Part shown: in pieces, positions 1,807 to 64,000 of the stretch
How positions within the stretch are numbered: position 1 is the first letter of the stretch
Layout of the letters: each line of letters opens with the position of its first letter
Virus record (IMG/VR): IMGVR_UViG_3300046819_000361
DNA length: 64,000 nucleotides
Origin: a virus
Taxonomy: Duplodnaviria; Caudoviricetes
Direction: 5' to 3' (one strand)
Made by a program: the position numbers and the translations under genes
Notes under the pieces: generated by a model
Told to the model about the DNA's origin: nothing
What the model saw: only the letters and a program-made list of their open reading frames with translations
Databases searched by the model: none

Positions 1807-1848
1807 CTTTGTTATTTTTGGACATTATATCACGATCTTTCGTTATTG

Positions 1849-4800
1849 TCAAACTACTTGAATACCCATATCATTTAGCATCGCTATGATGTCTTCACGT
1901 TGTTCATCATCAAATTCTTCACCTCTGATCTGTGCAACTTGCTGTAATGCGGCATCCAGTTCTTCGTTAGTCAAAGTACCTTGTTCTTTTCCTTTCGCAA
2001 GTAACGCCTTCATTACATCAGTAACAGTTGATGAGTTGGGTTCATCAGATGGTAGTTCAGATGGTAGTTCAGTACTAGTAAAATTCTTTTTTATTGCTTT
2101 TCTCAGATCTGGATTATCGGTTGTTCTATATGTCAAACCTATCATATCATCAGCCAAGTTAATACGTTTAGCATATGCAACAAACACATCAGGTGGTAAT
2201 ATACCCATGTCATTATATAATTGGGTATCAATCACAGGTGTTTTATTATGTTTTGCCATATTCAACAATCTTTTATGTTTTATTTCTTTAATGCGATCAT
2301 CATCACCGTCAGTATCAAGCAGATCCCTTACTCTGATTACCGAATTTTTAATAATTGATTCTTTTACTTCTTCTGATCCTTTACTGTAAATGTATTCAAG
2401 ATCTGAGAATCTGGCATTTGTTTGATTATCCATTACTGTTGGAAATACTTTATCAAGAGGGGAAACATCATCAAGTCTAACATATAAATCATGAAACACA
2501 TTGATAGAATCATGTTTGATAGCCGCTGCTATAATTTTCTTTGTAAGATTGGAGTCATCGCTATCATAGTTATACACCAAATCTCGTAGTTCACTCTCAG
2601 ATCCAGTGTCACAGATATGTGTTAATATGTTACTAATTAGTTTATCTATTTTGTATGAATCTGTAATATAATAACTATCACTGATTCTAGATTTAATGTA
2701 GAATAAAATCTTTGGTGATAATTTGATATGTTTTAATATAGTGTATAAACATTCATCTTCATCATTTTTTCCATAATCGGAATAGTCACCTTTTAAAATT
2801 TTAACAATAACACCCGCTGCATCACTGCCTTTCATTTGATTAGATTTGAGCAATCTATTAATAACAGATAAATCTTTACAGGATTCAGCAACCTGACTGA
2901 TATCTATTCGTTCTTCTTTAACACGTTTAACCCATAGGTTATGTACGGCTTCCCATACAATATCATCATTTAAATTGGTATATGATTCAATATCACTCAA
3001 TATAATGTTAGGTATACTATCATTTTTGATGATCTCGAATATTACATCAGAATCAGCATCTTTTAATATTTTAATAATGATGGTGTCAGTTGCATGTTCA
3101 TTTGTTGCTATTAAATGATATATTTTTGGATCAATAGTATACATAGAATTCAAACGATTAACAACATTAACTACATCCATCAATTCATCGGAATTAGATA
3201 CATTTTTAATATCATTTGTAATGTTTTTAATAATTTCTCGCATTTTATCATCGAGTTTATTATAAAAGTCCATTGAATCACCATGTTGGTATTCATCATT
3301 GGCATATTCAAATATTCTATTCATAGTATCTGCGTCACAATTTGGATTTGATAATATAGTTAAAAATGCATCATTATCAACTAATTCATCTCTTGGATCA
3401 GCCATTCTAATTAATTTTCTAGTAATCGTATTCAACGTACCAGTACCAACCTTAAATTTAATAATATCATATAATTCTTGAATATCGGTAGATCCTTTAA
3501 TGACATGTCTCAATCCATCATTATAATTATCCACAACCATATGATAAAATCTTAATAACTCAGTTCTATGATTTTCATATAATCCCTCTGGTAGGAAACC
3601 AATTACACCCGGTGTGGTTTTATATATTTCTTTAAGCAATTCAAAGAATTCGTTAGGTGCCTCATCAATAAACCTCGGTGGAAATGTTGAGATATCACCG
3701 GATAAAGAATTTTTAATAAAAGTTTTAGTAAGTTCCATTGCTGCTTTCGCGGTTTGAGCTCTTGATACAACAGTTGGGTATTTTGTTGCATCGTTCGCTA
3801 ATACCATTTTTAAATAACCAATAGTTAATAACTCAGGTGGAACTTTAGTTACTTCATTTTGATATGTACTATAGGTTTGTTTATCGGTTTCGTAATTACC
3901 ATGAATTTGTGTTTTGTTTTGATACTCAAATTCATTATAATTATATGCTTCTGGATGCAATGTAAATAAACCATCTAACTCCTGTGAAGCATTAACTGCA
4001 TCAGCCCATTCTTTGACTTTTTCACGAAATTCAGCTGGATATGATGCGCCACGGATATAAACTTTATCATGCACACCTAAAGCAATCTGATGGGTAGTAT
4101 CACTGATAAATGGTTTCATTGAAACACGAGCAATCGGATCATCCAAGTTCATGTCATCTTTCTTAACTAGATAAGCAGCAATTGAGCCAATTGCGACATC
4201 TCTAATAGCGGGTTCAGCATTTTCACCCCGTGCTTTACCTAGCTCATCGAGCCCAGACCAACCACCACCTAGATTCAAACAACTGGTCCATTTCTTGTTG
4301 GTACTTACTTCAGCTACTTCGTATTTGTCACGAGTGATCACAATTACTTGATTACTGGTGTTAAAATCTTCGGAATGTTCTACTTCAAACTTATTAGCAA
4401 TACTAGTGTCAACCTTGTTCGCAGTAAAGATTCGACCAATACTTTCAGGCATTGGTGGTCTGATAAAGATACCTTTGTTATAATCCATAACATCATATTT
4501 CATCTTTGCCAATCCTTGCATAACCGCTTCATTTGGTAATGCTTTTGGATCAGTTCTATGTGGATCATTCTCCCATGCTTGATACAGATTGGGAACACTA
4601 CCGAATACCACATTAGCAGAATATTGTCTTGGTGTTGAACTAATAGCAGTACCCGCTACATAATCCAATATTTTATACCCAAGTTTCGCTAATGCATCAA
4701 CTACTTCTGGACTTGGTTCAGCTGTACCTGACATAGGTAGGTATATACGTGATTCCTTTCCAAATATATGATCCCATTGTGCTGGATTATATTCCATTTT

Positions 4801-4872
4801 TTTAATTAGATCATCAACATATTTCTTTTGGTTTACATTTAATGCTTCATTAAACAATTGTCTTAACTTCAT
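1849..4872 (-). CDS. 1007-aa protein with C-terminal sigma70 region-1.1-like domain; candidate head-packaged protein
   Basis: C-term MKALLAKGKEQGTLTNEEL...EQREDIIAMLNDMGIQVV resembles RpoD region 1.1; MKLRQLFNE N-terminus. Confidence 0.8.
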   Translation of the reverse strand: MKLRQLFNEALNVNQKKYVDDLIKKMEYNPAQWDHIFGKESRIYLPMSGTAEPSPEVVDALAKLGYKILDYVAGTAISSTPRQYSANVVFGSVPNLYQAWENDPHRTDPKALPNEAVMQGLAKMKYDVMDYNKGIFIRPPMPESIGRIFTANKVDTSIANKFEVEHSEDFNTSNQVIVITRDKYEVAEVSTNKKWTSCLNLGGGWSGLDELGKARGENAEPAIRDVAIGSIAAYLVKKDDMNLDDPIARVSMKPFISDTTHQIALGVHDKVYIRGASYPAEFREKVKEWADAVNASQELDGLFTLHPEAYNYNEFEYQNKTQIHGNYETDKQTYSTYQNEVTKVPPELLTIGYLKMVLANDATKYPTVVSRAQTAKAAMELTKTFIKNSLSGDISTFPPRFIDEAPNEFFELLKEIYKTTPGVIGFLPEGLYENHRTELLRFYHMVVDNYNDGLRHVIKGSTDIQELYDIIKFKVGTGTLNTITRKLIRMADPRDELVDNDAFLTILSNPNCDADTMNRIFEYANDEYQHGDSMDFYNKLDDKMREIIKNITNDIKNVSNSDELMDVVNVVNRLNSMYTIDPKIYHLIATNEHATDTIIIKILKDADSDVIFEIIKNDSIPNIILSDIESYTNLNDDIVWEAVHNLWVKRVKEERIDISQVAESCKDLSVINRLLKSNQMKGSDAAGVIVKILKGDYSDYGKNDEDECLYTILKHIKLSPKILFYIKSRISDSYYITDSYKIDKLISNILTHICDTGSESELRDLVYNYDSDDSNLTKKIIAAAIKHDSINVFHDLYVRLDDVSPLDKVFPTVMDNQTNARFSDLEYIYSKGSEEVKESIIKNSVIRVRDLLDTDGDDDRIKEIKHKRLLNMAKHNKTPVIDTQLYNDMGILPPDVFVAYAKRINLADDMIGLTYRTTDNPDLRKAIKKNFTSTELPSELPSDEPNSSTVTDVMKALLAKGKEQGTLTNEELDAALQQVAQIRGEEFDDEQREDIIAMLNDMGIQVV

Positions 4873-4875
4873 TTA

Positions 4876-5472
4876 CTATCCTTGTACAAATCCAGCTGGT
4901 AAATCATAGTGTGCAATTTTATCTTTTGGTGTTACTACTTTGGTACCAACAATTTTATTCATATTGAATAATACAATCATGGTAGCATTACCCCATCCAA
5001 AAGGATTATTTACAACCTGATAATCACAACCATGTTGAACTAGAAACTCACGTTCAATTGCTTTATTACCAGGTCTTACTGCATCTTCATTCACAATAAC
5101 ATTAATGAAATGCTGTGCTAAAACATTATTACCATCTTTAGCTAGGTTGGTCATTCTTGCTGTTACATCTTTACGTTTAGCTGCCACAACATATAAATTG
5201 ACAAAGTTTAATACATCATCCAACGGTATAGTTACTTCTGCAGTTGATCTACCGGTGGCGATAGTAATCATATACAATTTTCTACTACCTTTGGCATATT
5301 TCCTAACCGCTTCATATTTGGTAATCAAATATAATCCTGGCCCATATTCAGATCTACCAGTTTTGTATTTGACAGTTGCATCAAGATTTCCACCATGCCA
5401 AAGACTCATTGTACCAGGTTGTGTAGATGGTTGAATTATTTCTTCTAATAAAATTTCGCTTACTTTCATCAA
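4876..5472 (-). CDS. ADP-ribosyltransferase-fold-like protein
   Basis: LWHGG...EYGPGLYL motif; MKVSEILLEE N-terminus. Confidence 0.5.
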   Translation of the reverse strand: MMKVSEILLEEIIQPSTQPGTMSLWHGGNLDATVKYKTGRSEYGPGLYLITKYEAVRKYAKGSRKLYMITIATGRSTAEVTIPLDDVLNFVNLYVVAAKRKDVTARMTNLAKDGNNVLAQHFINVIVNEDAVRPGNKAIEREFLVQHGCDYQVVNNPFGWGNATMIVLFNMNKIVGTKVVTPKDKIAHYDLPAGFVQG

Positions 5473-5477
5473 TTGCC

Positions 5478-6320
5478 CTACATTACAAATATTCTATTCA
5501 TGCATGCACTTAACACATCTTCAAACATGAATGGCATGGTATTCATCAAATTATTTATTTCATCATTAACATCATCTTCTGGTACATTAGGATCGGCAGT
5601 CATTGAATTTTTACGTCCCCATTTAGAAGAACCATAAGGTATATTACTTGGGAGCATATTCAATTTAATTTTGCCAGTTTGTAAGAATTGTGCAAATAAT
5701 TCATATAAGAATTCGAACGGTCGTTGTAATAACGCTTGTCTGCTACTGCGTTGTGTACCAATGGCATGGAACAATGCAGTATAATATTGATCAAATCTAG
5801 AATTATAACTATCGCCTGGAATATTTACACGATAGACTGTAGATAAGATTTCATGAATTGATCTGAAAAAGAAGGATTCCACATACCTCCATGCTGCACC
5901 CACCGATGAATTCATCCTATCTGCCACTATAGCATGTCCAAAACGATGTGCCATGATCCATGGTGTCATTACTACTTTATCAGCACCGGTATTGGATACA
6001 TAGACAATAGTGATTGCATCACTATCAATATCAGATAATATTTTCTCAGCAATTTCTGGACGTTTGGCAAATGTTTGTTGTATAAATTGTGGTGTTACTG
6101 TACCACGTTCTTGAAATTGGCGTAAACCTGGGTAATTAACAGGGAATATTCTAAAATCAACTCCAGTTTTTTCAAAGAATTTCAAAAGCTTTTGTTCGTG
6201 CTTTGGGTTCTGTATCAATTTCTTATCACGTGGATCATTAAATGAACCAGGTTTTTTAAAATCCCCCAATGGTTCATAATCTGTAATTGGTGCTTCTGTT
6301 ATAATTTCTGTTACTTTCAT
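5478..6320 (-). CDS. Hypothetical protein with HxxGH motif (possible metalloprotein)
   Basis: TPWIMAHRFGHAI; MKVTEIITE N-terminus. Confidence 0.6.
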   Translation of the reverse strand: MKVTEIITEAPITDYEPLGDFKKPGSFNDPRDKKLIQNPKHEQKLLKFFEKTGVDFRIFPVNYPGLRQFQERGTVTPQFIQQTFAKRPEIAEKILSDIDSDAITIVYVSNTGADKVVMTPWIMAHRFGHAIVADRMNSSVGAAWRYVESFFFRSIHEILSTVYRVNIPGDSYNSRFDQYYTALFHAIGTQRSSRQALLQRPFEFLYELFAQFLQTGKIKLNMLPSNIPYGSSKWGRKNSMTADPNVPEDDVNDEINNLMNTMPFMFEDVLSACMNRIFVM

Positions 6321-7048
6321 TTATCATCCTTGATATATTCGTTAATCAGATCGGTTCCTGAATAACTACCGCTGGCTCCAACAGCTGATGCAATTTGGCT
6401 AGCATTCCATGCTACGTAGAAATATTCACCTGATTGATGTTTAAATACCAATCCATCATATTTGGTAATTGCTATGCTATTTTGGAGGAATGCCTCATCT
6501 TGGTTTTTATACAGGTCATAGGCTATAGTGTTTAATTGACGTAATAGTGAATCATTATTTCTATATAAATCAATGACATCCCGTAATGCTTCATTTTTAT
6601 TCATTGAATAAGGAACATCGTAGTTATCTCTTAAATATTCATCAATATTAGGTGAGTTAAGAATAAATTGTTTTACTTGCATGCCGGTAAGTAATTTTTT
6701 AGAATTAGCTGGCATGGGTTTTTTGATGGATAGATATACTGGGATGACATTAGGTGCATCGGCATCTGGGTTAGCATAACCTGATGCGGTTGATGGGAAA
6801 TTGGTGAAGTAAAATCCAGTACCATACTCAGCTGCACCAACACTAGCATGTTCATAACTGAATCTTGTAAAATCTGCATTGGTTCCATGATACATAACCA
6901 ATGGTCTTTTGTGCTCATCTACTACTTTACTACCTTTGAACCATGCCCAAAAATTAGCTAATGCAGTATCATTATAGGCAATAGGTTTACCATTACTATT
7001 TTCATTAGGCAATGTTCTACGTGCCTCAAATAATTCTCTTAAATTCAT
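6317..7048 (-). CDS. ART-PolyVal-like ADP-ribosyltransferase domain protein
   Basis: FWAWFKGSKVVD...PLVMYHGT...GTGFYFT...NVIPVYL...YDG...QIASAVG. Confidence 0.7.
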   Translation of the reverse strand: MNLRELFEARRTLPNENSNGKPIAYNDTALANFWAWFKGSKVVDEHKRPLVMYHGTNADFTRFSYEHASVGAAEYGTGFYFTNFPSTASGYANPDADAPNVIPVYLSIKKPMPANSKKLLTGMQVKQFILNSPNIDEYLRDNYDVPYSMNKNEALRDVIDLYRNNDSLLRQLNTIAYDLYKNQDEAFLQNSIAITKYDGLVFKHQSGEYFYVAWNASQIASAVGASGSYSGTDLINEYIKDDK

Positions 7049-7099
7049 AATATTATTCCGTAATATTACTATTTAACGTTTTTCGTTATCTTTGTCAAA

Positions 7100-7605
7100 G
7101 GTATTAGGTATTACTAAAGGAGAACGGAGTTCTCCTGTTCTTCGCTATCGCTCATCACATTTTTTATAATTTCTATCTTACCTATTCAACTAGATTACGA
7201 TTATATTTTGCCCCATCAAGGGGGCAAAAAAATATTTCAACTGAGTTGACTTCATATCTGATATTACACTATTACAGAGGCGGTCAGCCGGTACCTCGAA
7301 GTGCTGTCTTTATTCTGACGGCGGGAGTATGAATACATATCAGCGCATTCATATCCGTGTGGTTTCTCTCCACTCTTTTAGCCTTTTTTCATTTGTTCAA
7401 ATTTTCGAAATTGGTTGTACTGAAGGCGTATCCAATCATCATTCACAACACTAGGTGTGAGTAGTCGAAAAAGTCACTGCATCAGCTCAGCTGTTTCCCT
7501 CTACGCGAAGCACATTCCGTATCTCGGGGCACCTTAATCCATTTTACCGGTGCTAGTATTATCTGAAGTTTTATTGCCTTTACTATGTCTAAATTTTGCC
7601 TATTT
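7100..7605 (-). ncRNA. Candidate ~500-nt structured non-coding RNA
   Basis: No ORF >=60 aa, locally GC-richer, several hairpins, directly downstream of a perfect sigma70 promoter. Confidence 0.5.
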
Positions 7606-7611
7606 GATGTT

Positions 7612-7640
7612 ATTATACTTTAAAACAAATTCAATGTCAA
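7612..7640 (-). promoter_or_regulatory. Consensus sigma70 promoter TTGACA-17-TATAAT overlapping the stop of the last array gene
   Basis: Minus strand TTGACAttgaatttgttttaaagTATAAT. Confidence 0.85.
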
Positions 7641-7855
7641 GAAAATTTTAATATTAACCAAGTGTAATGTGCTTCACTCTCGAATTCATAACCTGCATCA
7701 CTCAGTTCACATCCATAATCTGCTAATAATTGTCTTTCTGCTTCTACCCAACTCTCGAATGGGACAGATCGATCATTATATCCAGTAATCTCATCTATAT
7801 TCTTCTCTATATTAGGTGGAATATTATTAACAATATATTTTTCATTGGATGTCAT
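7637..7855 (-). CDS. Array micro-protein, subfamily C (distal end)
   Basis: ends WLILKFS. Confidence 0.8.
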   Translation of the reverse strand: MTSNEKYIVNNIPPNIEKNIDEITGYNDRSVPFESWVEAERQLLADYGCELSDAGYEFESEAHYTWLILKFS

Positions 7856-8109
7856 TTAGATCCCCATTGTATTACAAACCAATTGTAATATGATTCATCT
7901 TCAAATAGTAATACATTCACTAGTGACTCCTCATGAAATATATTCTCGGTGTATGTGCCATGATATTTCTTTAGTATGTCATTGACATAATCAATTCTTG
8001 CTGGTCTATCAGGTAATGTAGCAAGTATAGGAAGTAGTGACATTAGAAAATCCTGCCAATAGACAGGACAATTCGGCCATCCATACATAATTATTCTTTT
8101 AGGTTTCAT
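7852..8109 (-). CDS. Array micro-protein, E
   Basis: ATGA-coupled; ends WFVIQWGSK. Confidence 0.8.
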   Translation of the reverse strand: MKPKRIIMYGWPNCPVYWQDFLMSLLPILATLPDRPARIDYVNDILKKYHGTYTENIFHEESLVNVLLFEDESYYNWFVIQWGSK

Positions 8110-8318
8110 GACCATTTTAATACAAACCATGTGTAATCTTTATCATTGTCAAATTGCATACATATACCTGAAATTGTCATATCACGATATATAAATTTGC
8201 AATGATACTCCTCTTCAATTATGCTTCTAACCTTATCACCGTCTTTGAGATTTGCCAAATAATAATCATAGGCATTGGAATAAGGTATGAACCCATAGCA
8301 TCGCTTAATTATAGCCAT
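8106..8318 (-). CDS. Array micro-protein
   Basis: ends WFVLKWS. Confidence 0.8.
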   Translation of the reverse strand: MAIIKRCYGFIPYSNAYDYYLANLKDGDKVRSIIEEEYHCKFIYRDMTISGICMQFDNDKDYTWFVLKWS

Positions 8319-8515
8319 TTCATAGAAAACCATTGAAAGTGTGCTTCACTTTGAAATATAAGATACCGCCAATCATTAACTAATGCTAATCTGCCATTGA
8401 ATGTGGCCAATTCTTCATACAATTTTGATGAATGCCACGTATGGAATTCATCACCTAACTTATCACGCATGCTAGATGGTAAATGGTATATGCTAATTTT
8501 GAATTCTTCAGTCAT
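8309..8515 (-). CDS. Array micro-protein, C
   Basis: ends WFSMKWL. Confidence 0.8.
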   Translation of the reverse strand: MTEEFKISIYHLPSSMRDKLGDEFHTWHSSKLYEELATFNGRLALVNDWRYLIFQSEAHFQWFSMKWL

Positions 8516-8789
8516 GATATTCCCAATTTAGTAAAAACCATGTTTTGTATTGTTCTTTTTCGAATGTCAATTTTAATTGGTCAAATGGTCCATCAGTAGT
8601 CCACTCAACAGCTGAAATGCCTTTAAATTCATCTTTAATAAAATCCCTGATAAACTTATACTGCCCCCCATTAAATTTGCAGTTGCAATATTTCTTCCAT
8701 AAGAGATCTGTATCTTTGCGTGATAACAAAACATAGGGTGGTCGAAACTTAATTAAACCATAATTGTAAATTCTTTTAAAAATATTCAT
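8508..8789 (-). CDS. Array micro-protein
   Basis: ends WFLLNWEYHD. Confidence 0.8.
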   Translation of the reverse strand: MNIFKRIYNYGLIKFRPPYVLLSRKDTDLLWKKYCNCKFNGGQYKFIRDFIKDEFKGISAVEWTTDGPFDQLKLTFEKEQYKTWFLLNWEYHD

Positions 8790-8992
8790 GACCACCTCAA
8801 CACAAACCAATTTCGGTCATCTTGATTTGAAAAATATATTAAATTCCCAGCATATCTATATCGATCAGCCTCGTATTGACTTCCAAATTGATCTACACAC
8901 CATTGCATAATCATGCTTCTATCAGATGATGGTTCTCTGATGATAACTCCGTATGGGTAATTGTCTGTGCCACGGCAGGTGATTACTCTCAT
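8786..8992 (-). CDS. Array micro-protein, D
   Basis: ends WFVLRWS. Confidence 0.8.
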   Translation of the reverse strand: MRVITCRGTDNYPYGVIIREPSSDRSMIMQWCVDQFGSQYEADRYRYAGNLIYFSNQDDRNWFVLRWS

Positions 8993-9180
8993 GACCACCT
9001 CAACACAAACCAAGTATATTCTTCATCATCCATGCACCAGGAATTAATGCCCTTATATATTGCTGTTTTGAAACCGGCAGCTGCTAATATCTCATCCCAT
9101 TGATTCAAATTATTTAGTTCTGGATTGGAGTAAGCATACTCAACAAACTTTGGAAAATTAGATATCTTAAACTGTTTCAT
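8989..9180 (-). CDS. Array micro-protein, A
   Basis: ends WFVLRWS. Confidence 0.8.
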   Translation of the reverse strand: MKQFKISNFPKFVEYAYSNPELNNLNQWDEILAAAGFKTAIYKGINSWCMDDEEYTWFVLRWS

Positions 9181-9446
9181 GACCATCTCAATATAAAAAG
9201 TGTTCTATGATGTTCTTCTTGAAAACTGAAATTATCTTCAGGCGGATCATAAGCTGTATCTAGCCAATAATTCCATTTTAATTTTTTCTTATCAAATTGA
9301 TGTTCACACCAGTCACACATGACCCTGACTATTTCATCATAATCAGTATCACTGTATTCTGGTGGTAATTCCCCTGCATGTTTTCTGAGATCCGCTAAAT
9401 CATCAATTATGACTTTGTAACGTAACCGTTCATCTTCTATTCTCAT
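9177..9446 (-). CDS. Array micro-protein, D
   Basis: ends LFILRWS. Confidence 0.8.
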   Translation of the reverse strand: MRIEDERLRYKVIIDDLADLRKHAGELPPEYSDTDYDEIVRVMCDWCEHQFDKKKLKWNYWLDTAYDPPEDNFSFQEEHHRTLFILRWS

Positions 9447-9655
9447 GACCACCTTAATATAAACCAAGTTCGCAGTGCTTCTGTTTCAAATTTGACAATC
9501 CCCCAATAATCTGGGTGATGTGGATTTCTAATATGCGTTGCGTTATCGTATTGACCACCACATTCTTTAATACATGATTCTATTGATATTTCATGTGCTT
9601 TTGAATAATTAACTATGTTAGCTATTTCAGATCTGCTTAATGAATGCTTAATCAT
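9443..9655 (-). CDS. Array micro-protein
   Basis: ends WFILRWS. Confidence 0.8.
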   Translation of the reverse strand: MIKHSLSRSEIANIVNYSKAHEISIESCIKECGGQYDNATHIRNPHHPDYWGIVKFETEALRTWFILRWS

Positions 9656-9903
9656 GACCAATTCAAAAGAAACCAAGTCATATATTTGTCATCTTCGAAC
9701 TCTAAATATTCGATATAATGTAACTTTTCATTACGGACTAACTTACAATGAAACTCTTTACTAAATTTCTCATCATATTTTTCAAGGTATTCTCCCCAAC
9801 TTATAATTCCAGAAGTCCTCTGCATCGATAACATGACAGTACTAGCATTGGAATCAAACCATTTTATAGCTTTGTATGCTCTAGGTGTTGGTAATTGAAT
9901 CAC
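9652..9903 (-). CDS. Array micro-protein
   Basis: GTGA overlap; ends WFLLNWS. Confidence 0.8.
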   Translation of the reverse strand: MIQLPTPRAYKAIKWFDSNASTVMLSMQRTSGIISWGEYLEKYDEKFSKEFHCKLVRNEKLHYIEYLEFEDDKYMTWFLLNWS

Positions 9904-10088
9904 GCTGACCACCTTAACGTATACCACATTGCATCTTCCTCTCGTCCAAAATAAAATTTTCGTTCAACATGATTATAGAACCATCTTCGGTTCATTTCTG
10001 GTTTTCCGAATTGTTCACAACACCAGTTGAAATCATCGAAATTATCTATAGTGGTGTGACAAACCCACCATCCATGAAAATATTTCAT
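9900..10088 (-). CDS. Array micro-protein, D
   Basis: ends WYTLRWSA. Confidence 0.8.
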   Translation of the reverse strand: MKYFHGWWVCHTTIDNFDDFNWCCEQFGKPEMNRRWFYNHVERKFYFGREEDAMWYTLRWSA

Positions 10089-10090
10089 AA

Positions 10091-10294
10091 TTATCCACTA
10101 TACTTTAATGCAAACCAAGTAAATTCCACTTCATCCATTTCCCAATATGACTCTGTATCAGGTATTTTACTAATGAAATTGCAACTTTTAAATCCTAACT
10201 TCCTGATAAACTCATCAATTGCCATCCATTCATATTCTGGATATACTGATAACGCTTTGTCATATAGGTCCATTTCATAAATCTTGACTTTCAT
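10091..10294 (-). CDS. Array micro-protein, A
   Basis: ends WFALKYSG. Confidence 0.8.
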   Translation of the reverse strand: MKVKIYEMDLYDKALSVYPEYEWMAIDEFIRKLGFKSCNFISKIPDTESYWEMDEVEFTWFALKYSG

Positions 10295-10533
10295 AAAAAC
10301 CTCATTAAGAACCAATTATAGCATGCTACGTTTTCAAATATTATTTTGTCAAATCGGTTGTATTTATGTGCTGGATTTTCATGAAATTCATAAGCTTTGC
10401 ATTCCGAAAACAGCTTTGCCATATTCTTGTGATATTCATCAAGATTCAAATCACTATTAAGAGCACCACATTCTACAAGAAAGTTTTCTCGTGCCGGATC
10501 AGGAATATCATCCCACAATATAGTAACAGTCAT
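10291..10533 (-). CDS. Array micro-protein, C
   Basis: ends WFLMRFL. Confidence 0.8.
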   Translation of the reverse strand: MTVTILWDDIPDPARENFLVECGALNSDLNLDEYHKNMAKLFSECKAYEFHENPAHKYNRFDKIIFENVACYNWFLMRFL

Positions 10534-10772
10534 GAAAACCTCATTACAAACCAAGTGTAATAAGCTTCATTTTCAAATACGACTCTATCAAATTCTATCT
10601 CTCTGAGTGATTCATCATCATATAATTCATAGGCTTTAAATTGGGCAAATGCATCTTCCATATTATCAAGATATTCGTCAGCAGATATAGAATCATCCAT
10701 AGACCCACACTCTCTTGTAAAATTTTCACATACTTGGTCAGATATATCGGACCATTTAACAATAAAACTCAT
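10530..10772 (-). CDS. Array micro-protein, C
   Basis: ends WFVMRFS. Confidence 0.8.
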   Translation of the reverse strand: MSFIVKWSDISDQVCENFTRECGSMDDSISADEYLDNMEDAFAQFKAYELYDDESLREIEFDRVVFENEAYYTWFVMRFS

Positions 10773-11176
10773 GAACTCCACCTCATTACAAACCAATTAC
10801 GATCAGCTTCTGTTTTAAAAACAAAATGACTATTGCCACAATACCATCTGGTATTATCTATAAACTTCCAACCATGAGAATATGGACCAAATGTTTCTGT
10901 CAACCACGCTATCATTTCTTTCATCTCTGATGGTAAGAAATATCCAACCATATATTTAAAATCATGCTGATTGCTTTCTACAGTTTCACATATCATACCG
11001 GTTTCCCATACATCGTCTGATTCTTCTAAATTTAATGGATTACCTGGATGTGTACAATAACTACAAGGTGGGTGCCAATGACAAGAGCAACTTCGATTCC
11101 TATATAATGAATCAAAATCCTCTTGTAATGATAACCCAACTGCATTTAATCTTCTAGATAATTGGTTTATGACCAT
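10769..11176 (-). CDS. Array protein, D, with Cys/His-rich N-terminal extension
   Basis: CSCHWHPPCSYC; ends WFVMRWSS. Confidence 0.75.
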   Translation of the reverse strand: MVINQLSRRLNAVGLSLQEDFDSLYRNRSCSCHWHPPCSYCTHPGNPLNLEESDDVWETGMICETVESNQHDFKYMVGYFLPSEMKEMIAWLTETFGPYSHGWKFIDNTRWYCGNSHFVFKTEADRNWFVMRWSS

Positions 11177-11430
11177 TTTAATAAAAACCAAGTTTGAGTT
11201 TCTTCTTTATTGAACTCTAATGCTGTTAGTTCGTCTCTTCCAGTTTTTGGATTTTGCTCATAAATTTTAACAGCACCGTATTCAGATTGCAAAATATTTG
11301 AAGTGTATATCATAAAATTAACAGTTAAATCACCATGTGTTTTCACAAAGATTTTTTCATGATGGTCGATAAAGTTTTGCCACCATAATGGGGTTTCATA
11401 AAAATTTTCACCTGGAATTTCTAATCTCAT
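11167..11430 (-). CDS. Array micro-protein, E
   Basis: ends WFLLKWS. Confidence 0.8.
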   Translation of the reverse strand: MRLEIPGENFYETPLWWQNFIDHHEKIFVKTHGDLTVNFMIYTSNILQSEYGAVKIYEQNPKTGRDELTALEFNKEETQTWFLLKWS

Positions 11431-11645
11431 TGGCTCCACCTTAATAAAAACCAAGTATAACACGCTTCATTGTTAAAGTAAATAGTACGGTATATCCTGC
11501 CTGAACCGCCATACTTATTGAATTCTGCTTCAACATTCTCAACATATTTTACCGCAGTAACACTTAAGTCAACACTGCCACACTCATAACACAATTTTTC
11601 TATGACATTATCGGGTATGTCACACCACTTTACTATGAAGACCAT
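11427..11645 (-). CDS. Array micro-protein, C
   Basis: ends WFLLRWSQ. Confidence 0.8.
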   Translation of the reverse strand: MVFIVKWCDIPDNVIEKLCYECGSVDLSVTAVKYVENVEAEFNKYGGSGRIYRTIYFNNEACYTWFLLRWSQ

Positions 11646-11911
11646 TTTAACACAAACCAATCACGATGTTCAATTTTTGCAAATCTAAACCGATAGTTAT
11701 GGTCAACTGGATTAACCAGTTTACGTTGAATCAACAACAATTTATTTGCAACATCTAAATTGTCTGTCAATAACTCCATGTTCCATGATCGATCACCAGC
11801 ATGCCCAAATGATTTAGTACACCATCTAGTGCATTCTATAAATTCTTCATCAGTGCATAAAACATTAATGAAGTGATATAATGGATTTGATTTTGCTTTT
11901 GTTAAGACCAT
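11633..11911 (-). CDS. Array micro-protein, D
   Basis: ends WFVLKWSS. Confidence 0.8.
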   Translation of the reverse strand: MVLTKAKSNPLYHFINVLCTDEEFIECTRWCTKSFGHAGDRSWNMELLTDNLDVANKLLLIQRKLVNPVDHNYRFRFAKIEHRDWFVLKWSS

Positions 11912-12132
11912 TTTAATATAAACCAGGTAAAATCTTCTTCTCGTTCAAAAATTGCATACTTTACCTTAAAATGCGTGATTGACTTATACTCACCAACAAC
12001 TCTGAATTTACAAAGTTTTTCTAGAAAGTCAATTTGTAAATTAACATCGGAGTATTCCTCGATTAATACCTTATGTTCGGCAAGAACGTTGTGTAGTTGA
12101 ACACCAATTTCTTTACTTGTTACAAGTTTCAT
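11902..12132 (-). CDS. Array micro-protein
   Basis: ends WFILKWS. Confidence 0.8.
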   Translation of the reverse strand: MKLVTSKEIGVQLHNVLAEHKVLIEEYSDVNLQIDFLEKLCKFRVVGEYKSITHFKVKYAIFEREEDFTWFILKWS

Positions 12133-12353
12133 GACCACCTCAATTTGAACCAATTATATAGTTCAGGTTTTAAATAATATGCCGTTTTGTGATATGGTGG
12201 ATTCATACCATGCCATAATTCTTTGGGTTGTTGTCTAATCCAATTGTGTAATTCGTCGGACTCCAGTAATAATGGGTTTGATGATAATTCAAAACAATAT
12301 ACAAAACCATTATTGATGAATAGCTCATATGCACCATTTCTAGGTAAACTCAT
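12129..12353 (-). CDS. Array micro-protein
   Basis: ends WFKLRWS. Confidence 0.8.
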   Translation of the reverse strand: MSLPRNGAYELFINNGFVYCFELSSNPLLLESDELHNWIRQQPKELWHGMNPPYHKTAYYLKPELYNWFKLRWS

Positions 12354-36958: not shown

Positions 36959-37312
36959 ATGGATGATCAATTAGAAAAAAGAAAACAAGAAATCATGCAA
37001 GCGTATGAAGCAAGTAATGATAAAGCGGCATTTGAAGCGGCAATCCATGAAATTGGTGATTTGTCAAGGAAAATGACTGAAATAGTCAAAACTGCTCGAA
37101 AAAGAATGATTGACAAAGGATTATTGGAAGCCACTGATGAAGATGCAGGAATTAACATGGAAACACAACTTAAAGAAAAAATCGGTGATACTGTCAATGG
37201 TGAATCTATAACAAGCATTCAGCAAGATGAATATAACAACTGGGTTGACATCCATAATTCAGCTATAAGATTGAATGAATTACTAGACAAATTGAAAGTA
37301 ACACCAAAATGA
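36959..37312 (+). CDS. Hypothetical protein
   Basis: GAGGA RBS. Confidence 0.7.
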   Translation: MDDQLEKRKQEIMQAYEASNDKAAFEAAIHEIGDLSRKMTEIVKTARKRMIDKGLLEATDEDAGINMETQLKEKIGDTVNGESITSIQQDEYNNWVDIHNSAIRLNELLDKLKVTPK

Positions 37313-37587
37313 AAATTTCTGAAATATTAGACGCTGAAAATAGCATCGATGATATGCTTGATTCGATAAAGTTTTCCTCATTGCCGACTATCGATAAATT
37401 TATCGATAATATATTAGGATTTACTAATAATTTTAATGTACCAGTCGATGTATTTAATGATGAATTAATTCAAGAAATGTTAGATGAGGCAACTCATCTA
37501 AAATCGGTATTAGAAAAAGAATTTGATGATGGTTCTAGGTGGATTGTAAAGATAAATGCTGTAATTGCATATCTATCTGGTAATTAA
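37309..37587 (+). CDS. Hypothetical protein (MKISEILDAE N-terminus)
   Basis: ATGA overlap. Confidence 0.7.
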   Translation: MKISEILDAENSIDDMLDSIKFSSLPTIDKFIDNILGFTNNFNVPVDVFNDELIQEMLDEATHLKSVLEKEFDDGSRWIVKINAVIAYLSGN

Positions 37588-52584: not shown

Positions 52585-52932
52585 ATGAACAATATAAGTC
52601 TAATAAATGAAATGGTTATTGATGGTGAATTAATCATAATGAGAATCATAGAAGAAGAGTTGATCTCTATTAAATTTGATAATCCAATGAAGGTTAATTT
52701 TGAATTAAGTCATATGACCTTATTATCATTAGGTGTTTATCGTGAATTAAAGCAGATAATTAATAGCTATCCTAACAAGCAGTTTTTATTATGTTCTGAA
52801 TCGGATAACGAAACAGTTAAGGCATTATATCAAGATACTGCCTATTATTTATCAAAACGATTGGGCATGAGTAAACGATGTATTGATAATGGGTATGTAT
52901 TAACATCTAGGAAGAATAAAATTGAAAATTAG
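52585..52932 (+). CDS. Hypothetical protein
   Basis: follows TATAAATA. Confidence 0.65.
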   Translation: MNNISLINEMVIDGELIIMRIIEEELISIKFDNPMKVNFELSHMTLLSLGVYRELKQIINSYPNKQFLLCSESDNETVKALYQDTAYYLSKRLGMSKRCIDNGYVLTSRKNKIEN

Positions 52933-53455
52933 GGAAATCATAAATCAGTTCACGGAAACATTAGATACGAAAGCTGACGTCAATTGGTCAACAAACGGCC
53001 AATATTTACAAGGCACGTTTATCCGCGATAACCATGAGTACTTGATTACTGCCAAATCGATAAACTTGTCAAAATTAATTGATAGTCGATTTATAAATTG
53101 TATTGAAATATCATTTCAAATATTGGATAAGTATGGTGAATATTCGTATGATGCAGGGAGATCTTCAAAAAATATGTTTTCAATTTTGGCTATAGTGTAT
53201 AACGCAATTATACAAAAAATCACCAATTTATCAACATATGATGCTATTATTTTCACAGCAACTGCATATGATGGGGCATTTCTTCAAAGATCATCCTTAT
53301 ATAACCGGTTATCAAGTACTTTAGCGAAAAAGCATAATTTAAATTCGTATAGTATTCGTTCAACACAAGAGTTATTGCAATTCTATATTATTACTAAACA
53401 TTATATTTCCGATATCTTGATTGGTAAACTACAGAACATCATTCATGACTATTAA
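52922..53455 (+). CDS. Hypothetical protein (MKIREII..TE N-terminus)
   Basis: ORF track. Confidence 0.65.
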   Translation: MKIREIINQFTETLDTKADVNWSTNGQYLQGTFIRDNHEYLITAKSINLSKLIDSRFINCIEISFQILDKYGEYSYDAGRSSKNMFSILAIVYNAIIQKITNLSTYDAIIFTATAYDGAFLQRSSLYNRLSSTLAKKHNLNSYSIRSTQELLQFYIITKHYISDILIGKLQNIIHDY

Positions 53456-53537
53456 AGATGATATTATTCTACCCTGCTAGCTCTATCTAATATTTTTATT
53501 GAATATGGATGATGGCATTTAGGGTATAAATAGACGT

Positions 53538-54188
53538 ATGAAAATAAAAGAATTATTTGAAAATGGGATGATCATATCTCCACAGTTTAAGTCTTGGTTT
53601 GGTAATAGTATTGTTATAGATAGTGTTGGCAATCCGATACCGATGTATCATGGTACAGCGGGTGATATTGGTCAATTTACTGGTTTTGTAAATTGGTTTG
53701 CTAGTAGTCCTAAATTTGCGAGTGACTATGCTGATATGCGAGATTTTAATAAAGGTGGTGGAGGCAATGTTGTAAAGGCGTATATCAAAGCTGAGCGACC
53801 ATTTAATGCTGATAGATTGAGTAAAGGTTCGAACACCATTCCGATGTTTGTAATGGAATTAGTTAAGCAAGCAGATGAGAATGGGGTTAATTTTGATGAG
53901 CGGGTTGCTAGACATTTATTAGATGTTATAAAGGCTAGTGCTAGGGAAGAGGAATCTGGTCCGCATTATTCTGCTCATGATTTTTGGTTTAATACTGGTT
54001 CATCCTTTGGTGAGCGTGGTAGTAATGCGATTAGAGAATTATTTAAGATTTTGGGATTTGATAGTATCAAGTATACTGAAGATGGTGAGTTCACTATTGG
54101 TGTGTTTCGGGGTAATCAAATCAAATCTGCAGTGGGTAATAGTGGGATCTATGATCCCACTAGTGATGATATTGTGAAAGAGTGGTGA
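53538..54188 (+). CDS. ART-PolyVal-like ADP-ribosyltransferase domain protein
   Basis: FKSWFGNS.VID..G.P..MYHGT...GFDSI...QIKSAVGN.G.Y; paralog of 6317. Confidence 0.7.
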   Translation: MKIKELFENGMIISPQFKSWFGNSIVIDSVGNPIPMYHGTAGDIGQFTGFVNWFASSPKFASDYADMRDFNKGGGGNVVKAYIKAERPFNADRLSKGSNTIPMFVMELVKQADENGVNFDERVARHLLDVIKASAREEESGPHYSAHDFWFNTGSSFGERGSNAIRELFKILGFDSIKYTEDGEFTIGVFRGNQIKSAVGNSGIYDPTSDDIVKEW

Positions 54189-54254
54189 TTAGTTAAATAG
54201 GAATCGGTAATGATTTTTATTGCATTATTACCTATAGTTTATAATATTTTCATC

Positions 54255-54626
54255 TTATGTCCTATTAATTGGTTTAGCGCCAATAATTTGTTGTGGTACT
54301 TGAGCCTGTTGTCTTAATTTCAAGTCATCTTCACGAGCGTTTGGATTTTTTGAAATAGTTGGTGCAATAGCTTGCCAACCTTTTTGTGTCATTAGTTGTG
54401 CTTGTAATCTGCCATTTCTAAAAGAAGGTCGTGTTAAATCTTCATCGGCTGACACTGGATCATGTGGGTTTGCAAGTTGATAATTTAGACCGGCTTTATG
54501 TCCTGGGCAATTTGGGTCATTCTGGTCAACACAGGGGTGCATATCGTTTGGTCCTTTAGGAGGTTTAGGACCGTAACGAAAGAATGAGCCGTTGCCGATT
54601 GATTCTGTAATTTCTTTAATTTTCAT
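54255..54626 (-). CDS. Hypothetical protein (MKIKEITE N-terminus)
   Basis: ORF track. Confidence 0.65.
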   Translation of the reverse strand: MKIKEITESIGNGSFFRYGPKPPKGPNDMHPCVDQNDPNCPGHKAGLNYQLANPHDPVSADEDLTRPSFRNGRLQAQLMTQKGWQAIAPTISKNPNAREDDLKLRQQAQVPQQIIGAKPINRT

Positions 54627-55212
54627 AAGTAGCTCCGACGATTGGATCTAGGATAACTGGGGTATTGTTACGTAATAGGACGTTACCTTTATGTAGGTCC
54701 AACACGGGTTGAGATGGTAATTTATCCATATCGTCAATAATTTCAAAAATACCTGGATAGTGTTGCAGTAGGAATTCTTTTTGGTCAGTTGTTAATTCAC
54801 GTGCGTAGAATAGTGGTTTAATAACTGCCATTAGATCTGAAAGATTCTTACCGACAATTGGTTCTAATTTTTCCAATCTAATCACGAATGTATTTTTATT
54901 GATTCTAATGATAGGCCCGGTAGTTTTTGGTACATTTGGATTAGACTGATGCAATCTAATATATTTAATATACTGTAGAAATGCTGGATCGTGAGTAAAG
55001 ATTTTTAAAACCCAGGGATAAGTTGGGTGAATATAAGCTGAACCGTAGGATCCGGTACCCAGGTGTTTAAATCCGTTATCCAACATATATTTTTGAAACT
55101 GTTCCAATTTATCAATACGGGGGTTAAAAGCGCTCAAATCACCTTGAAATGTTTGAGATGCTTGTTGGAAATGTGGATGGCTTTTATATCCGGTTAATTC
55201 TTTAATTTTCAT
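54616..55212 (-). CDS. Protein-kinase-like protein
   Basis: LGTGSYGSAY Gly loop, VLK, DLHKGNVL catalytic loop, ILDP. Confidence 0.75.
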   Translation of the reverse strand: MKIKELTGYKSHPHFQQASQTFQGDLSAFNPRIDKLEQFQKYMLDNGFKHLGTGSYGSAYIHPTYPWVLKIFTHDPAFLQYIKYIRLHQSNPNVPKTTGPIIRINKNTFVIRLEKLEPIVGKNLSDLMAVIKPLFYARELTTDQKEFLLQHYPGIFEIIDDMDKLPSQPVLDLHKGNVLLRNNTPVILDPIVGATYEN

Positions 55213-61128: not shown

Positions 61129-61656
61129 TTATAAAAGTTTATCTAAATGAATCATTTCACTTTGTCTCGATATTTCTTTGACAAAGTACGCACATTCTGG
61201 TGCATCCCCATCAGCCAATGGCATTGCCAATAATTGGCCGTTTTTCATTTTTGGAAAATACCATTTAATATCATTGTAAAAATTAACTATTTCAATTGGC
61301 TTGAATTCCAATCGATGTGAACTCAGTGGATTGAATACTAATGCTTCAAATCCCCTATCATTTAAACTAGTTAACGGTATTATTTCAATATTAGTTGCAC
61401 TAGTACTGTCACCCACTGCAATGTGCCAATCAAGTGGCATGGTGATTTCTTGATCCCCAATTCTTAACACCATTGCTGGCGCATTGAATGATTCCAAAAA
61501 AATTAATGGCACGAAAAAGAAATCTGGATTCAATGGTGCACTGTTATCTAAAACAGCAAATCTGGTATCATCATCAACTGTGTCAGGTAAATTATTCAAT
61601 GAGACCGCTTTATTATCTAATGTTAATATATTCATTATTATCCTTATTTCTGCCAA
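61129..61656 (-). CDS. Hypothetical protein
   Basis: ORF track; likely start at MNILTLDN. Confidence 0.7.
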   Translation of the reverse strand: MAEIRIIMNILTLDNKAVSLNNLPDTVDDDTRFAVLDNSAPLNPDFFFVPLIFLESFNAPAMVLRIGDQEITMPLDWHIAVGDSTSATNIEIIPLTSLNDRGFEALVFNPLSSHRLEFKPIEIVNFYNDIKWYFPKMKNGQLLAMPLADGDAPECAYFVKEISRQSEMIHLDKLL

Positions 61657-64000
61657 TCAACTTTTTCTATCGTAAATGGATATTGAGCTTCTCGGTAAAA
61701 TTTCTTTCTCTCCGTAAGGTGACGCTTCGCAAACTTACAGGTGGAGGTAATATCCCAGATTTGGACGAAGTCTTTGTCTTTGGCTTTTCTAACTCCACGC
61801 CCAATCGATTGTATAACTCTTGTAAAGCTTTTACCGGGCTCAAGAAGAACCAAATTAAATACACGGGGAATATTAAGACCAACAGCAGCAACACCATAAG
61901 TGGCGACAATAATCTTGTTATCACTTGTTCTAATTTCATCATATTCATCTTTTCTGTCTTTTGATTTTACCTTACCTGATATGAATACCGAATCAGGTAT
62001 TTTATTTACAATGAAATTGCCAGTATCGATTCGATTAACTAATACCAACGTATTACCCGTTTCAGCTATTGAACTTATCATATTACTAATAAAAGTCATT
62101 CTTTTTGAATCAGTTACCAAATAGGTTAATTCTTCTGAATACGATTGGAAAGCTGCTAGATCATACAGTTGTGTTATATTAACATGACACCCAGATAATA
62201 CACCCATTTCTTGTAATTCATGCGCCTTAATACCACCGACCACTGGTCCAATACTAGCAAAAATACTTTCAAACTCATGTGATTCTTTTGGCACTGTACC
62301 AGTAAGTCCCCATCTAATTGGTGCATTACAAAGATTTTGAGTAAGTAGATTTTTCAAAACTTCTGCTTTTGCCATATGTACTTCATCAACAATTACGGCT
62401 TTTACATCGTCTAAAAATTCTGCTAATGTAATAATATCATGCTGATTGTTTTTACTTTTCTTATCAAGAATATTAAGACTTTGCCATGTACATATAGTGT
62501 GAGTTTTGTACAAATCTTTTCTGTCACCATAATATACACCGACATCTAGTCCACAATTGATGAAATCTTCTTCGGTTTGTTCTACCAGTGATTTATTTGG
62601 GACAATAATAATAGTTCTACCATATTGCTCACATAACTGTGATAATGTTGCAGTAGTAATAGTGTTGTGTGTTACAATATAATCATCTGTAATATATAAA
62701 TGATCTGGACTATCGATTAAAATACATTTAACACATTCAGTAGATACCTGTTTGATATCAGTTACATTAAGCTTCAATGTATTGCCATATTGATATTTAA
62801 AATTAGTAGCATTAACTTTCCGAGTCAATGAAGCAAGAATCCAAGGTTTCGGAAATTTAGTCGTAACAAGATAGGCATCTTTACATGATTTACGAGTTCC
62901 ATTATACATATATGTTCTATTAGTTTTATGTTTTATTTTAGCAATACCACCAACACTACGAATAAGTTGTTGAAATCCTTTAGCTAATTCTAAACTAGTA
63001 CTAGTGAAAGTAACACTAGATTTATCAATGGTTCCGTCACTATCAACCAATCCTCTTATTAATTCAAATCTCTGTTCTAAACTTGCAGTGAAATAAATTT
63101 CAGGTATAAATTTAGAATGACTATATGTTTCCATCAAATTTAGTTCTTTTAAAATGTGTACATATTTGTGAAATGAACTGTTAACATCAGTAATATTGTC
63201 ATTCGAATTTCTATCTTTGTTTTTCAGGTAGTTGGATTTACTATCTTGCAAAATTTCATTGGTTGCAAATGTGATATTATAATCATACCTGGATATATGG
63301 TTAACCTTGTAATTAACATCCAATTTCGATGAAACCTTATCAATTAACTCTTGATCTGCAGAAGTAAATGAAACTTTGTTATTTCTAAAACTACCATCAC
63401 CCAATAAAAACCCAAGCAACCACGGATCCATTGGTAACACAATATCAACATTATCATCTTCCATTGTAACTAATGGAACACCGATGTTACGTTTAGTAGA
63501 TGATTTTAATTTGATTAATTCATTAGTTGAAATATTTCGATATGGACCCGTACTTGATCTTTTCCAATCAATATTATATATTCTCCAAATATGATCACCA
63601 CATGATCTAGTAGATCTTCCATCACTAAATGTTAATTCATATACATCCTTAATGCCAGGTTCATATGTATCTAGTATCTTTGCTGGTTTACCGGTCGGTG
63701 TTATGACATAGTCACCAACTTGTAACTCCCCCATAGTTTTCCAACCGAAATTTGTCAATACCTTACTAGAATAGGGCTGACATTTACCAGCACCTGTTGC
63801 GATTTCTTGCAAACTCTGTGGATTTTCCAAAAATCGATTAATTGCATCGACTTGGTAGTCTCGTAACATGATCGGTGTACCTTCAGCTGGGTGTCCAGGT
63901 GGCCATACTTTACCTTGATCTGCCCAATATGTTTCCGTAACCTTATTAAAATGCAAGTTAATCGAGTTGCGTCGATCATCGACTTCTTCAATGTCAATTC
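61644..64000 (-). CDS. uvsW: UvsW-like SF2 helicase with intein (5' end beyond window)
   Basis: LRDYQ, ATGAGK|T, DEVH, GLTGT, QSIGRG; frame stays open to 64000. Confidence 0.85.
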   Translation of the reverse strand, partial: IDIEEVDDRRNSINLHFNKVTETYWADQGKVWPPGHPAEGTPIMLRDYQVDAINRFLENPQSLQEIATGAGKCQPYSSKVLTNFGWKTMGELQVGDYVITPTGKPAKILDTYEPGIKDVYELTFSDGRSTRSCGDHIWRIYNIDWKRSSTGPYRNISTNELIKLKSSTKRNIGVPLVTMEDDNVDIVLPMDPWLLGFLLGDGSFRNNKVSFTSADQELIDKVSSKLDVNYKVNHISRYDYNITFATNEILQDSKSNYLKNKDRNSNDNITDVNSSFHKYVHILKELNLMETYSHSKFIPEIYFTASLEQRFELIRGLVDSDGTIDKSSVTFTSTSLELAKGFQQLIRSVGGIAKIKHKTNRTYMYNGTRKSCKDAYLVTTKFPKPWILASLTRKVNATNFKYQYGNTLKLNVTDIKQVSTECVKCILIDSPDHLYITDDYIVTHNTITTATLSQLCEQYGRTIIIVPNKSLVEQTEEDFINCGLDVGVYYGDRKDLYKTHTICTWQSLNILDKKSKNNQHDIITLAEFLDDVKAVIVDEVHMAKAEVLKNLLTQNLCNAPIRWGLTGTVPKESHEFESIFASIGPVVGGIKAHELQEMGVLSGCHVNITQLYDLAAFQSYSEELTYLVTDSKRMTFISNMISSIAETGNTLVLVNRIDTGNFIVNKIPDSVFISGKVKSKDRKDEYDEIRTSDNKIIVATYGVAAVGLNIPRVFNLVLLEPGKSFTRVIQSIGRGVRKAKDKDFVQIWDITSTCKFAKRHLTERKKFYREAQYPFTIEKVDWQK
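62664..63782 (-). mobile_element. LAGLIDADG intein (373 aa) in helicase Walker A
   Basis: starts CQPY, ends VTHN followed by Thr; LLGFLLGDG and GLVDSDG motifs. Confidence 0.92.

Follow-up and report, generated by a model that had tools for sequence, protein, structure and literature searches.

A sigma70 region 1.1 domain at the C terminus of a leader-bearing protein in a large tailed phage

Architecture and C-terminal domain of the fusion protein

The phage DNA analysed here (64,000 nucleotides; the window) is part of a large Caudoviricetes genome (IMG/VR record IMGVR_UViG_3300046819_000361), and the sequencing runs that match it best are mostly freshwater metagenomes. Three of its genes are read as encoding a UvsW-type helicase, a gp41-type helicase and a primase. 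Near one end lies a cluster of leader-bearing genes, the last of which encodes a protein that carries a sigma70 region 1.1 at its C terminus (Table 1). The perfect sigma70 promoter at the end of this gene reads towards the downstream genes and not into the fusion gene itself. RNA runs yielded short contig pieces only, and no expression was seen in them.

Table 1. Features of the fusion gene and of the cluster to which it belongs
Feature	Position	Strand	Remarks
Fusion-protein gene, 1007 aa, 114 kDa	1849..4872	-	last of four-gene cluster, all leader-bearing
Leader MKLRQLFNE↓A at N terminus	4846..4872	-	resembles T4 capsid targeting sequence
N-terminal domain, aa 10-325	3898..4845	-	aa 172-325 predicted as divergent GNAT/PcfJ-like fold; unnamed jumbo-phage family
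Alpha-helical solenoid, aa 326-930	2083..3897	-	fast-evolving; from AF2 and comparison with relatives
Disordered Ser/Pro/Glu linker, aa 931-950	2023..2082	-	AF2 low confidence at aa 933-947
12-bp repeat inside linker	2045-2068	-	one to three copies, varies among strains
Sigma70 region 1.1 core, aa 951-1007	1852..2022	-	Pfam match 954-1007; net charge -8; 6-aa insertion
Perfect sigma70 promoter TTGACA-17-TATAAT with TG	1824..1852	-	overlaps stop codon of fusion gene
Upstream neighbour, 197 aa, leader-bearing	4876..5469	-	weak ART-PolyVal match, E 0.011, below cut-off
Upstream neighbour, 280 aa, leader-bearing	5478..6320	-	no family match
First gene of cluster, 243-aa ADP-ribosyltransferase, leader-bearing	6317..7048	-	ART-PolyVal, 81.9 bits
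TAAATA motif, T4-type late-promoter-like	7070..7075	-	27 nt ahead of cluster

The initial annotation had described the end of this 1007-residue protein as a region 1.1 mimic behind a Ser/Pro linker. The length of the open reading frame and the quoted ending both proved correct, the linker corresponds to the disordered Ser/Pro/Glu stretch, and the Pfam profile Sigma70_r1_1 (PF03979) matches aa 954-1007 (window positions 2013-1852) with 47.6 bits (E 1.7e-12, cut-off 22.5), spanning positions 7-54 of the 81-position model. A scan of all six frames across the window gave no other such match. Among PDB entries, RpoD chains are matched at E 1e-5 with the single sequence as query, and at 1e-14 with a profile of five phage sequences, which covers residues 5-55 of E. 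coli sigma70. AF2 places three helices (aa 950-964, 969-983 and 989-1001) and two short strand bridges in the domain, with a pLDDT of about 80. By score, predicted fold and charge, the domain belongs to PF03979, known from the E. coli (4LK1) and T. maritima (2K6X) structures, with which it shares sequence, a predicted three-helix fold, acidity and a flexible tether. In sigma the domain is N-terminal, whereas the phage copy is C-terminal and comes with neither sigma regions 1.2-4 nor the linker of residues 57-95.

The net charge of -8 compares with -5.3 ± 1.3 in bacterial cores (n=76), and the phage copies as a group (-5 to -8) equal or exceed the bacterial mean. What has been retained is the folded core, since the protein ends at model position 54, short of the acidic linker that follows in RpoD (charge -9 to -12). 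Most positions conserved in RpoD are kept or conservatively substituted; the equivalents of Tyr24 and Pro32 are altered, and 6 residues are inserted relative to RpoD. Identity is 46% to enteric RpoD and up to 57% to that of other Gammaproteobacteria. The closest bacterial domains are gammaproteobacterial RpoD N termini (50-57% identity, in a search with biased seeds), which supports the earlier view of a captured host domain. Its resemblance to RpoD identifies the domain as a homologous copy and not as a mimic that arose by convergence. A single origin of the phage copies has a p-AU of 0.33 on a 52-column tree that is itself without resolution.

Judged by its sequence, the protein as a whole is not a sigma factor; regions 1.2, 2, 3 and 4 are absent from its 1007 residues, and the C-terminal PF03979 match is its sole Pfam match. 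A fold search with the full-length protein returned generic helical repeats and nothing else. Polyvalent proteins combine several hallmark domains (MPTase, LPD, ART and others) on a single chain (Iyer et al. 2017, PMC5512222); none of these has a Pfam match in the fusion protein.

Distribution and conservation of the fusion

The fusion is real, conserved and, apparently, previously undescribed. An assembly chimera or misassembly is ruled out: the identical protein occurs in two Logan runs and on a contig of 367,267 bp, and in two further studies the fusion junction is covered by single contigs. We rejected a transduced rpoD fragment because the domain is in frame, its GC3 is like that of the fusion gene and the window contains no other sigma region. 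The same C-terminal domain is found in three related phage proteins (P0001, P0002 and P0003, with 99, 88 and 66% protein identity), and a C-terminal region 1.1 is also carried by P0007 and P0008 (about 35% identity; 46 and 53 bits). Pfam scores among the relatives range from 38 to 53 bits. Together with P0004, these five proteins form one well-supported clade, the pattern of which requires either one gain and one loss of the domain or two gains. P0004 is encoded at the orthologous locus, where the downstream genes are the same, but it stops just before the linker and lacks region 1.1; the putative enzyme therefore does not need the domain.

Comparison with P0007 and P0008 gives 42% and 36% identity for region 1.1 as against 21% and 17% for the adjacent solenoid, so that the domain is about twice as conserved as its neighbour; it is intact and in frame in five clusters. 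pN is lower than pS in all three comparisons of region 1.1, with synonymous sites near saturation. The most conserved part of the fusion protein is its N-terminal domain. From the conservation of region 1.1 and its absence in P0004, we conclude that it is kept under constraint, yet is dispensable for the family.

Among the best 120 of 5556 profile matches, the five phage fusions come first and are followed by RpoD and RpoD fragments. We did not find region 1.1 outside rpoD in cultured phage records, two to three unannotated records aside, and its matches in IMG/VR are intact rpoD genes or unannotated records only. In the literature searched, no report was found of this fusion or of a phage protein that carries its own region 1.1.

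Met954 is a possible separate internal start, with no clear ribosome-binding site ahead of it. Cleavage by the head protease to free the domain was considered and rejected: the last 130 residues contain no [ILF]-x-E site, and none is conserved in the linkers of the relatives. In P0007 (L008:200-3544), about 20 extra residues follow region 1.1 and begin with an L-S-E site, where the head protease might cut and so place region 1.1 almost at the end of the protein. Another contig encodes two tandem family paralogues of 1034 and 1148 aa (L097:6001-12565). The second of these, P0009 and P0010 each finish with a helix-strand segment. Its likeness to the final portion of region 1.1 is faint and not significant, and these ends may be decayed copies of the domain. 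In the phage that encodes P0003, genes for a TctC-like protein and a TonB-dependent receptor lie near the orthologous locus (L096:12475-15015).

Leader sequence, virion homologues and N-terminal domain

T4-type head leaders are cleaved after a hydrophobic-x-Glu motif. The leader of the fusion protein ends with F-N-E at aa 7-9 and fits the concept of a capsid targeting sequence developed for T4 (PMC3012670). A leader-type motif lies within the first 25 residues of 104 of the 154 family proteins, compared with a mean of 2.3 in internal windows, a count made with a pattern that was picked after inspection of the data. TAAATA occurs ahead of 8 of the 189 open reading frames in the window, and it is also found 26-38 nt ahead of the orthologous clusters and of the homologues in phages Atu_ph07 and RsoM2USA.

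Both of these homologues are virion proteins. ORF132 of RsoM2USA is among the ten main virion bands (PMC8504454), and gp394 of Atu_ph07 was detected in purified virions with 18 peptides and 41% coverage (PMC6102473). We equated gp394 with AUZ95153 by its mass (55.10 kDa) and that of its neighbour (11.30 kDa). The two proteins have only the N-terminal domain in common with the fusion protein and lack region 1.1, and we therefore infer packaging of the fusion protein rather than observe it. The earlier suggestion of possible injection from the virion is supported indirectly by the leader of the protein, the late-type promoter motif and the homologues in two virion proteomes.

Further leader-bearing genes are found at 37309-37587 and 52922-55212. 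They include a second ART-PolyVal gene (53538-54188, 66.6 bits) and a kinase-looking open reading frame with no Pfam match (54616-55212). In run X4, a 176-nt part of the ADP-ribosyltransferase gene of the cluster (6513-6690) is swapped for 197 other letters, forming a variable segment.

The N-terminal domain, which the initial annotation had overlooked, belongs to a family of 1508 relatives (counted as representatives) that matches phrog_17056 and has homologues in RsoM2USA, Atu_ph07, Lu11, JA11 and Erwinia jumbo phages. The fusion protein shares the leader and the homologous N-terminal domain with this jumbo-phage virion family (RsoM2USA ORF132, Atu_ph07 gp394, Lu11_0207/0208, JA11_176/177), with E values to 1e-16 by sequence and 1e-15 by fold. 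Region 1.1 is missing from all cultured members, whose helical tails also differ from that of the fusion protein.

AF2 models the domain with a pLDDT of 91 when given 134 sequences. For its second half, all of the top 50 VIA rows are GNAT folds (best Z 6.0, rmsd 3.6 over 110 residues), at Z values that VIA itself classes as a common arrangement. GNAT-like matches by other programs are weak (best Foldseek E 0.0095; Atlas TM 0.3-0.5), and so are the leads to PcfJ-like proteins (PF14284; features 0.88, Foldseek E 0.0025, TM 0.29-0.38). No Pfam match to GNAT or PF14284 is listed among 134 family members, and a PDB sequence search with the profile of the domain returned no match. The canonical Q/R-x-x-G-x-G/A CoA loop is absent from the family; at the position that we take as its equivalent, based on sequence and secondary structure, a V-Y-G...F...V..W pattern is conserved. 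W195 and C198 are invariant across the family, which suggests an active site. Taken as modelled, the domain has a GNAT-like fold and is a putative acyltransferase. Such a domain suggests a purpose for docking on a host target.

Possible roles of the displaced region 1.1

Region 1.1 is the cis gatekeeper of housekeeping sigma factors. In the holoenzyme it occupies the downstream channel of RNA polymerase (RNAP) and is ejected by DNA (PMC6970531), and in free sigma it touches regions 2 and 4 (PMC7641759). Its deletion raised thrABC activity about 32-fold, which makes it a barrier to the open complex at some promoters (PMC6970531). The isolated E. coli domain, supplied in trans as residues 1-100 at up to about 8-fold excess, restores inhibition by T7 Gp2 of holoenzymes that lack region 1.1 or contain sigma38, and does not inhibit transcription by itself (PMC3778932). 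On this evidence, region 1.1 can enter an empty channel without being tethered to sigma, but it blocks poorly. The phage copy ends near RpoD residue 56, compared with residue 100 for the fragment used in these experiments.

The window contains 18 perfect TTGACA-N16-18-TATAAT promoters (1824-57932), where 0.21 would be expected, and the phage therefore appears to depend on the host sigma70 holoenzyme. This apparent reliance, the missing acidic linker and the harmlessness of region 1.1 alone in trans (PMC3778932) weaken the earlier proposal that the protein blocks RNAP; our analysis leaves docking on RNAP, the other half of that proposal, plausible. As we weigh the sequence evidence, the copy most likely serves to steer the protein to the host polymerase.

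Our preferred reading, which we hold tentatively, is that of a virion-delivered acyltransferase-like effector in which region 1.1 would be a weak docking arm for the RNAP channel. The protein would be made late as head cargo of a T4-like jumbo phage. Its leader would take it into the head, where the prohead protease would trim it, and it would enter the host together with the DNA. Its N-terminal domain, with a predicted GNAT fold, would act as a transferase. Region 1.1, on its flexible linker, would bind, weakly, inside the basic channel for downstream DNA in host RNAP, as does the host's own domain, and so bring the enzyme to RNAP or a nearby protein, tilting transcription towards the phage. 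Because the channel is filled by the cis region 1.1 in the sigma70 holoenzyme, and by DNA during elongation, the arm should favour free core and alternative-sigma holoenzymes and would spare the sigma70 enzyme that the early promoters of the phage require. About 600 residues separate the arm from the enzyme, so that the substrate need not be RNAP. We count in favour of this reading the ADP-ribosyltransferase genes beside the fusion gene in the cluster, and against it the other partners of region 1.1, namely sigma regions 2 and 4 (PMC7641759).

Three known systems resemble this proposed effector in part. T4 Alt, a head-packaged ADP-ribosyltransferase that acts on RNAP alpha, is likewise a large late protein with a head leader from a phage that uses host RNAP; delivery and target would be alike, both being putative for the protein studied here. 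The two are not homologous, and ADP-ribosyl transfer in Alt contrasts with the GNAT-like domain of our protein. We know of no captured sigma domain in T4 Alt. Rac (gp28) of the phiKMV-like phage LUZ19 is a phage GNAT that affects host RNAP, with a predicted and required acetyl-CoA pocket (PMC7552054). Compared by description, it differs in being made during infection and in having no reported region 1.1, leader or solenoid. T7 Gp2 also exploits region 1.1 and the downstream channel, but it locks the region 1.1 of the host, whereas this phage carries its own copy.

In a more specific version, which we regard as doubtful, region 1.1 of a virion-injected transferase would be a state sensor: it would enter only RNAP with an empty channel (core and stress-sigma forms), which the enzyme would then modify or disable, while the sigma70 enzyme would be spared. 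If true, this would give a first function to a jumbo-phage virion family of more than 1500 members. The protein might instead be a steric inhibitor that acts with no enzymatic step, its region 1.1 sitting in the channel of core or alternative-sigma RNAP and held there by the bulky solenoid. Region 1.1 does bar open complexes at some promoters, as the thrABC effect illustrates (PMC6970531), and inhibition becomes full when T7 Gp2 provides a second anchor for the domain in trans (PMC3778932), a part that the solenoid could play. This explanation is nevertheless unlikely: by itself the trans domain does not inhibit (PMC3778932), the 18 perfect sigma70 promoters imply that a general RNAP block would hurt the phage, and conservation in the protein is highest in the N-terminal domain.

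Quite improbable is a role in binding free sigma70, in which the copy would contact sigma regions 2 and 4 and either sequester sigma70 or recruit the GNAT-like domain to it. The contacts of region 1.1 in free sigma (PMC7641759) and the retention of most of its conserved positions would suit such a partner, but the copy would have to outcompete the tethered cis domain, and the phage itself appears to need sigma70. We give the same low probability to a generic acidic appendage, that is, a captured fragment that mimics DNA non-specifically, aids solubility or has no function. The orthologue P0004, which does without the domain, and the possibly decayed ends of P0009 and P0010 speak for such a passenger, but five clusters keep the domain whole and in frame, it is conserved twice as strongly as the solenoid beside it, pN lies below pS, and its GC3 is similar to that of the gene that carries it.

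Least probable, by a small margin, is a decoy or bait for proteins that engage region 1.1 (Gp2-like inhibitors of rival phages, or a host factor); the GNAT-like domain might then modify the protein so caught. T7 Gp2 uses region 1.1 for full inhibition (PMC3778932), and the patchy presence and long phage branches suit a conflict role, but the main Gp2 site is the beta-prime jaw (PMC3778932), no soluble binder of region 1.1 is known to us, and we found no direct evidence for a decoy.

A naturally selected free-standing region 1.1 makes its action in trans in vivo, and its discrimination between RNAP forms, open to test. The fusion also hints, for the first time, at what a large and so far unannotated family of jumbo-phage virion proteins, predicted to be GNAT-like in fold, may act on, and the cultured members RsoM2USA, Atu_ph07, Lu11 and JA11 make the predicted enzyme accessible to assay.

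Several of the perfect sigma70 promoters overlap the stop codon of the preceding gene. Behind another (7640-7612) lies a stretch of about 560 nt on the minus strand that is free of open reading frames (7049-7610). It contains a match to the Rfam family Polynucleobacter-1 (7558-7399; 57.3 bits, gathering threshold 37), and its conservation in two related phages reaches well past the Rfam model; it is possibly a larger structured RNA. From 7637 to 12153 and beyond, the minus strand carries a long array of genes for proteins of 60-100 aa, nearly all with a terminal W-F-x-L-x-W-S-type motif, and the orthologous loci are likewise preceded by runs of small genes. At 61644-63998 on the same strand, the UvsW-like helicase gene reads as though split by an intein with a homing endonuclease.
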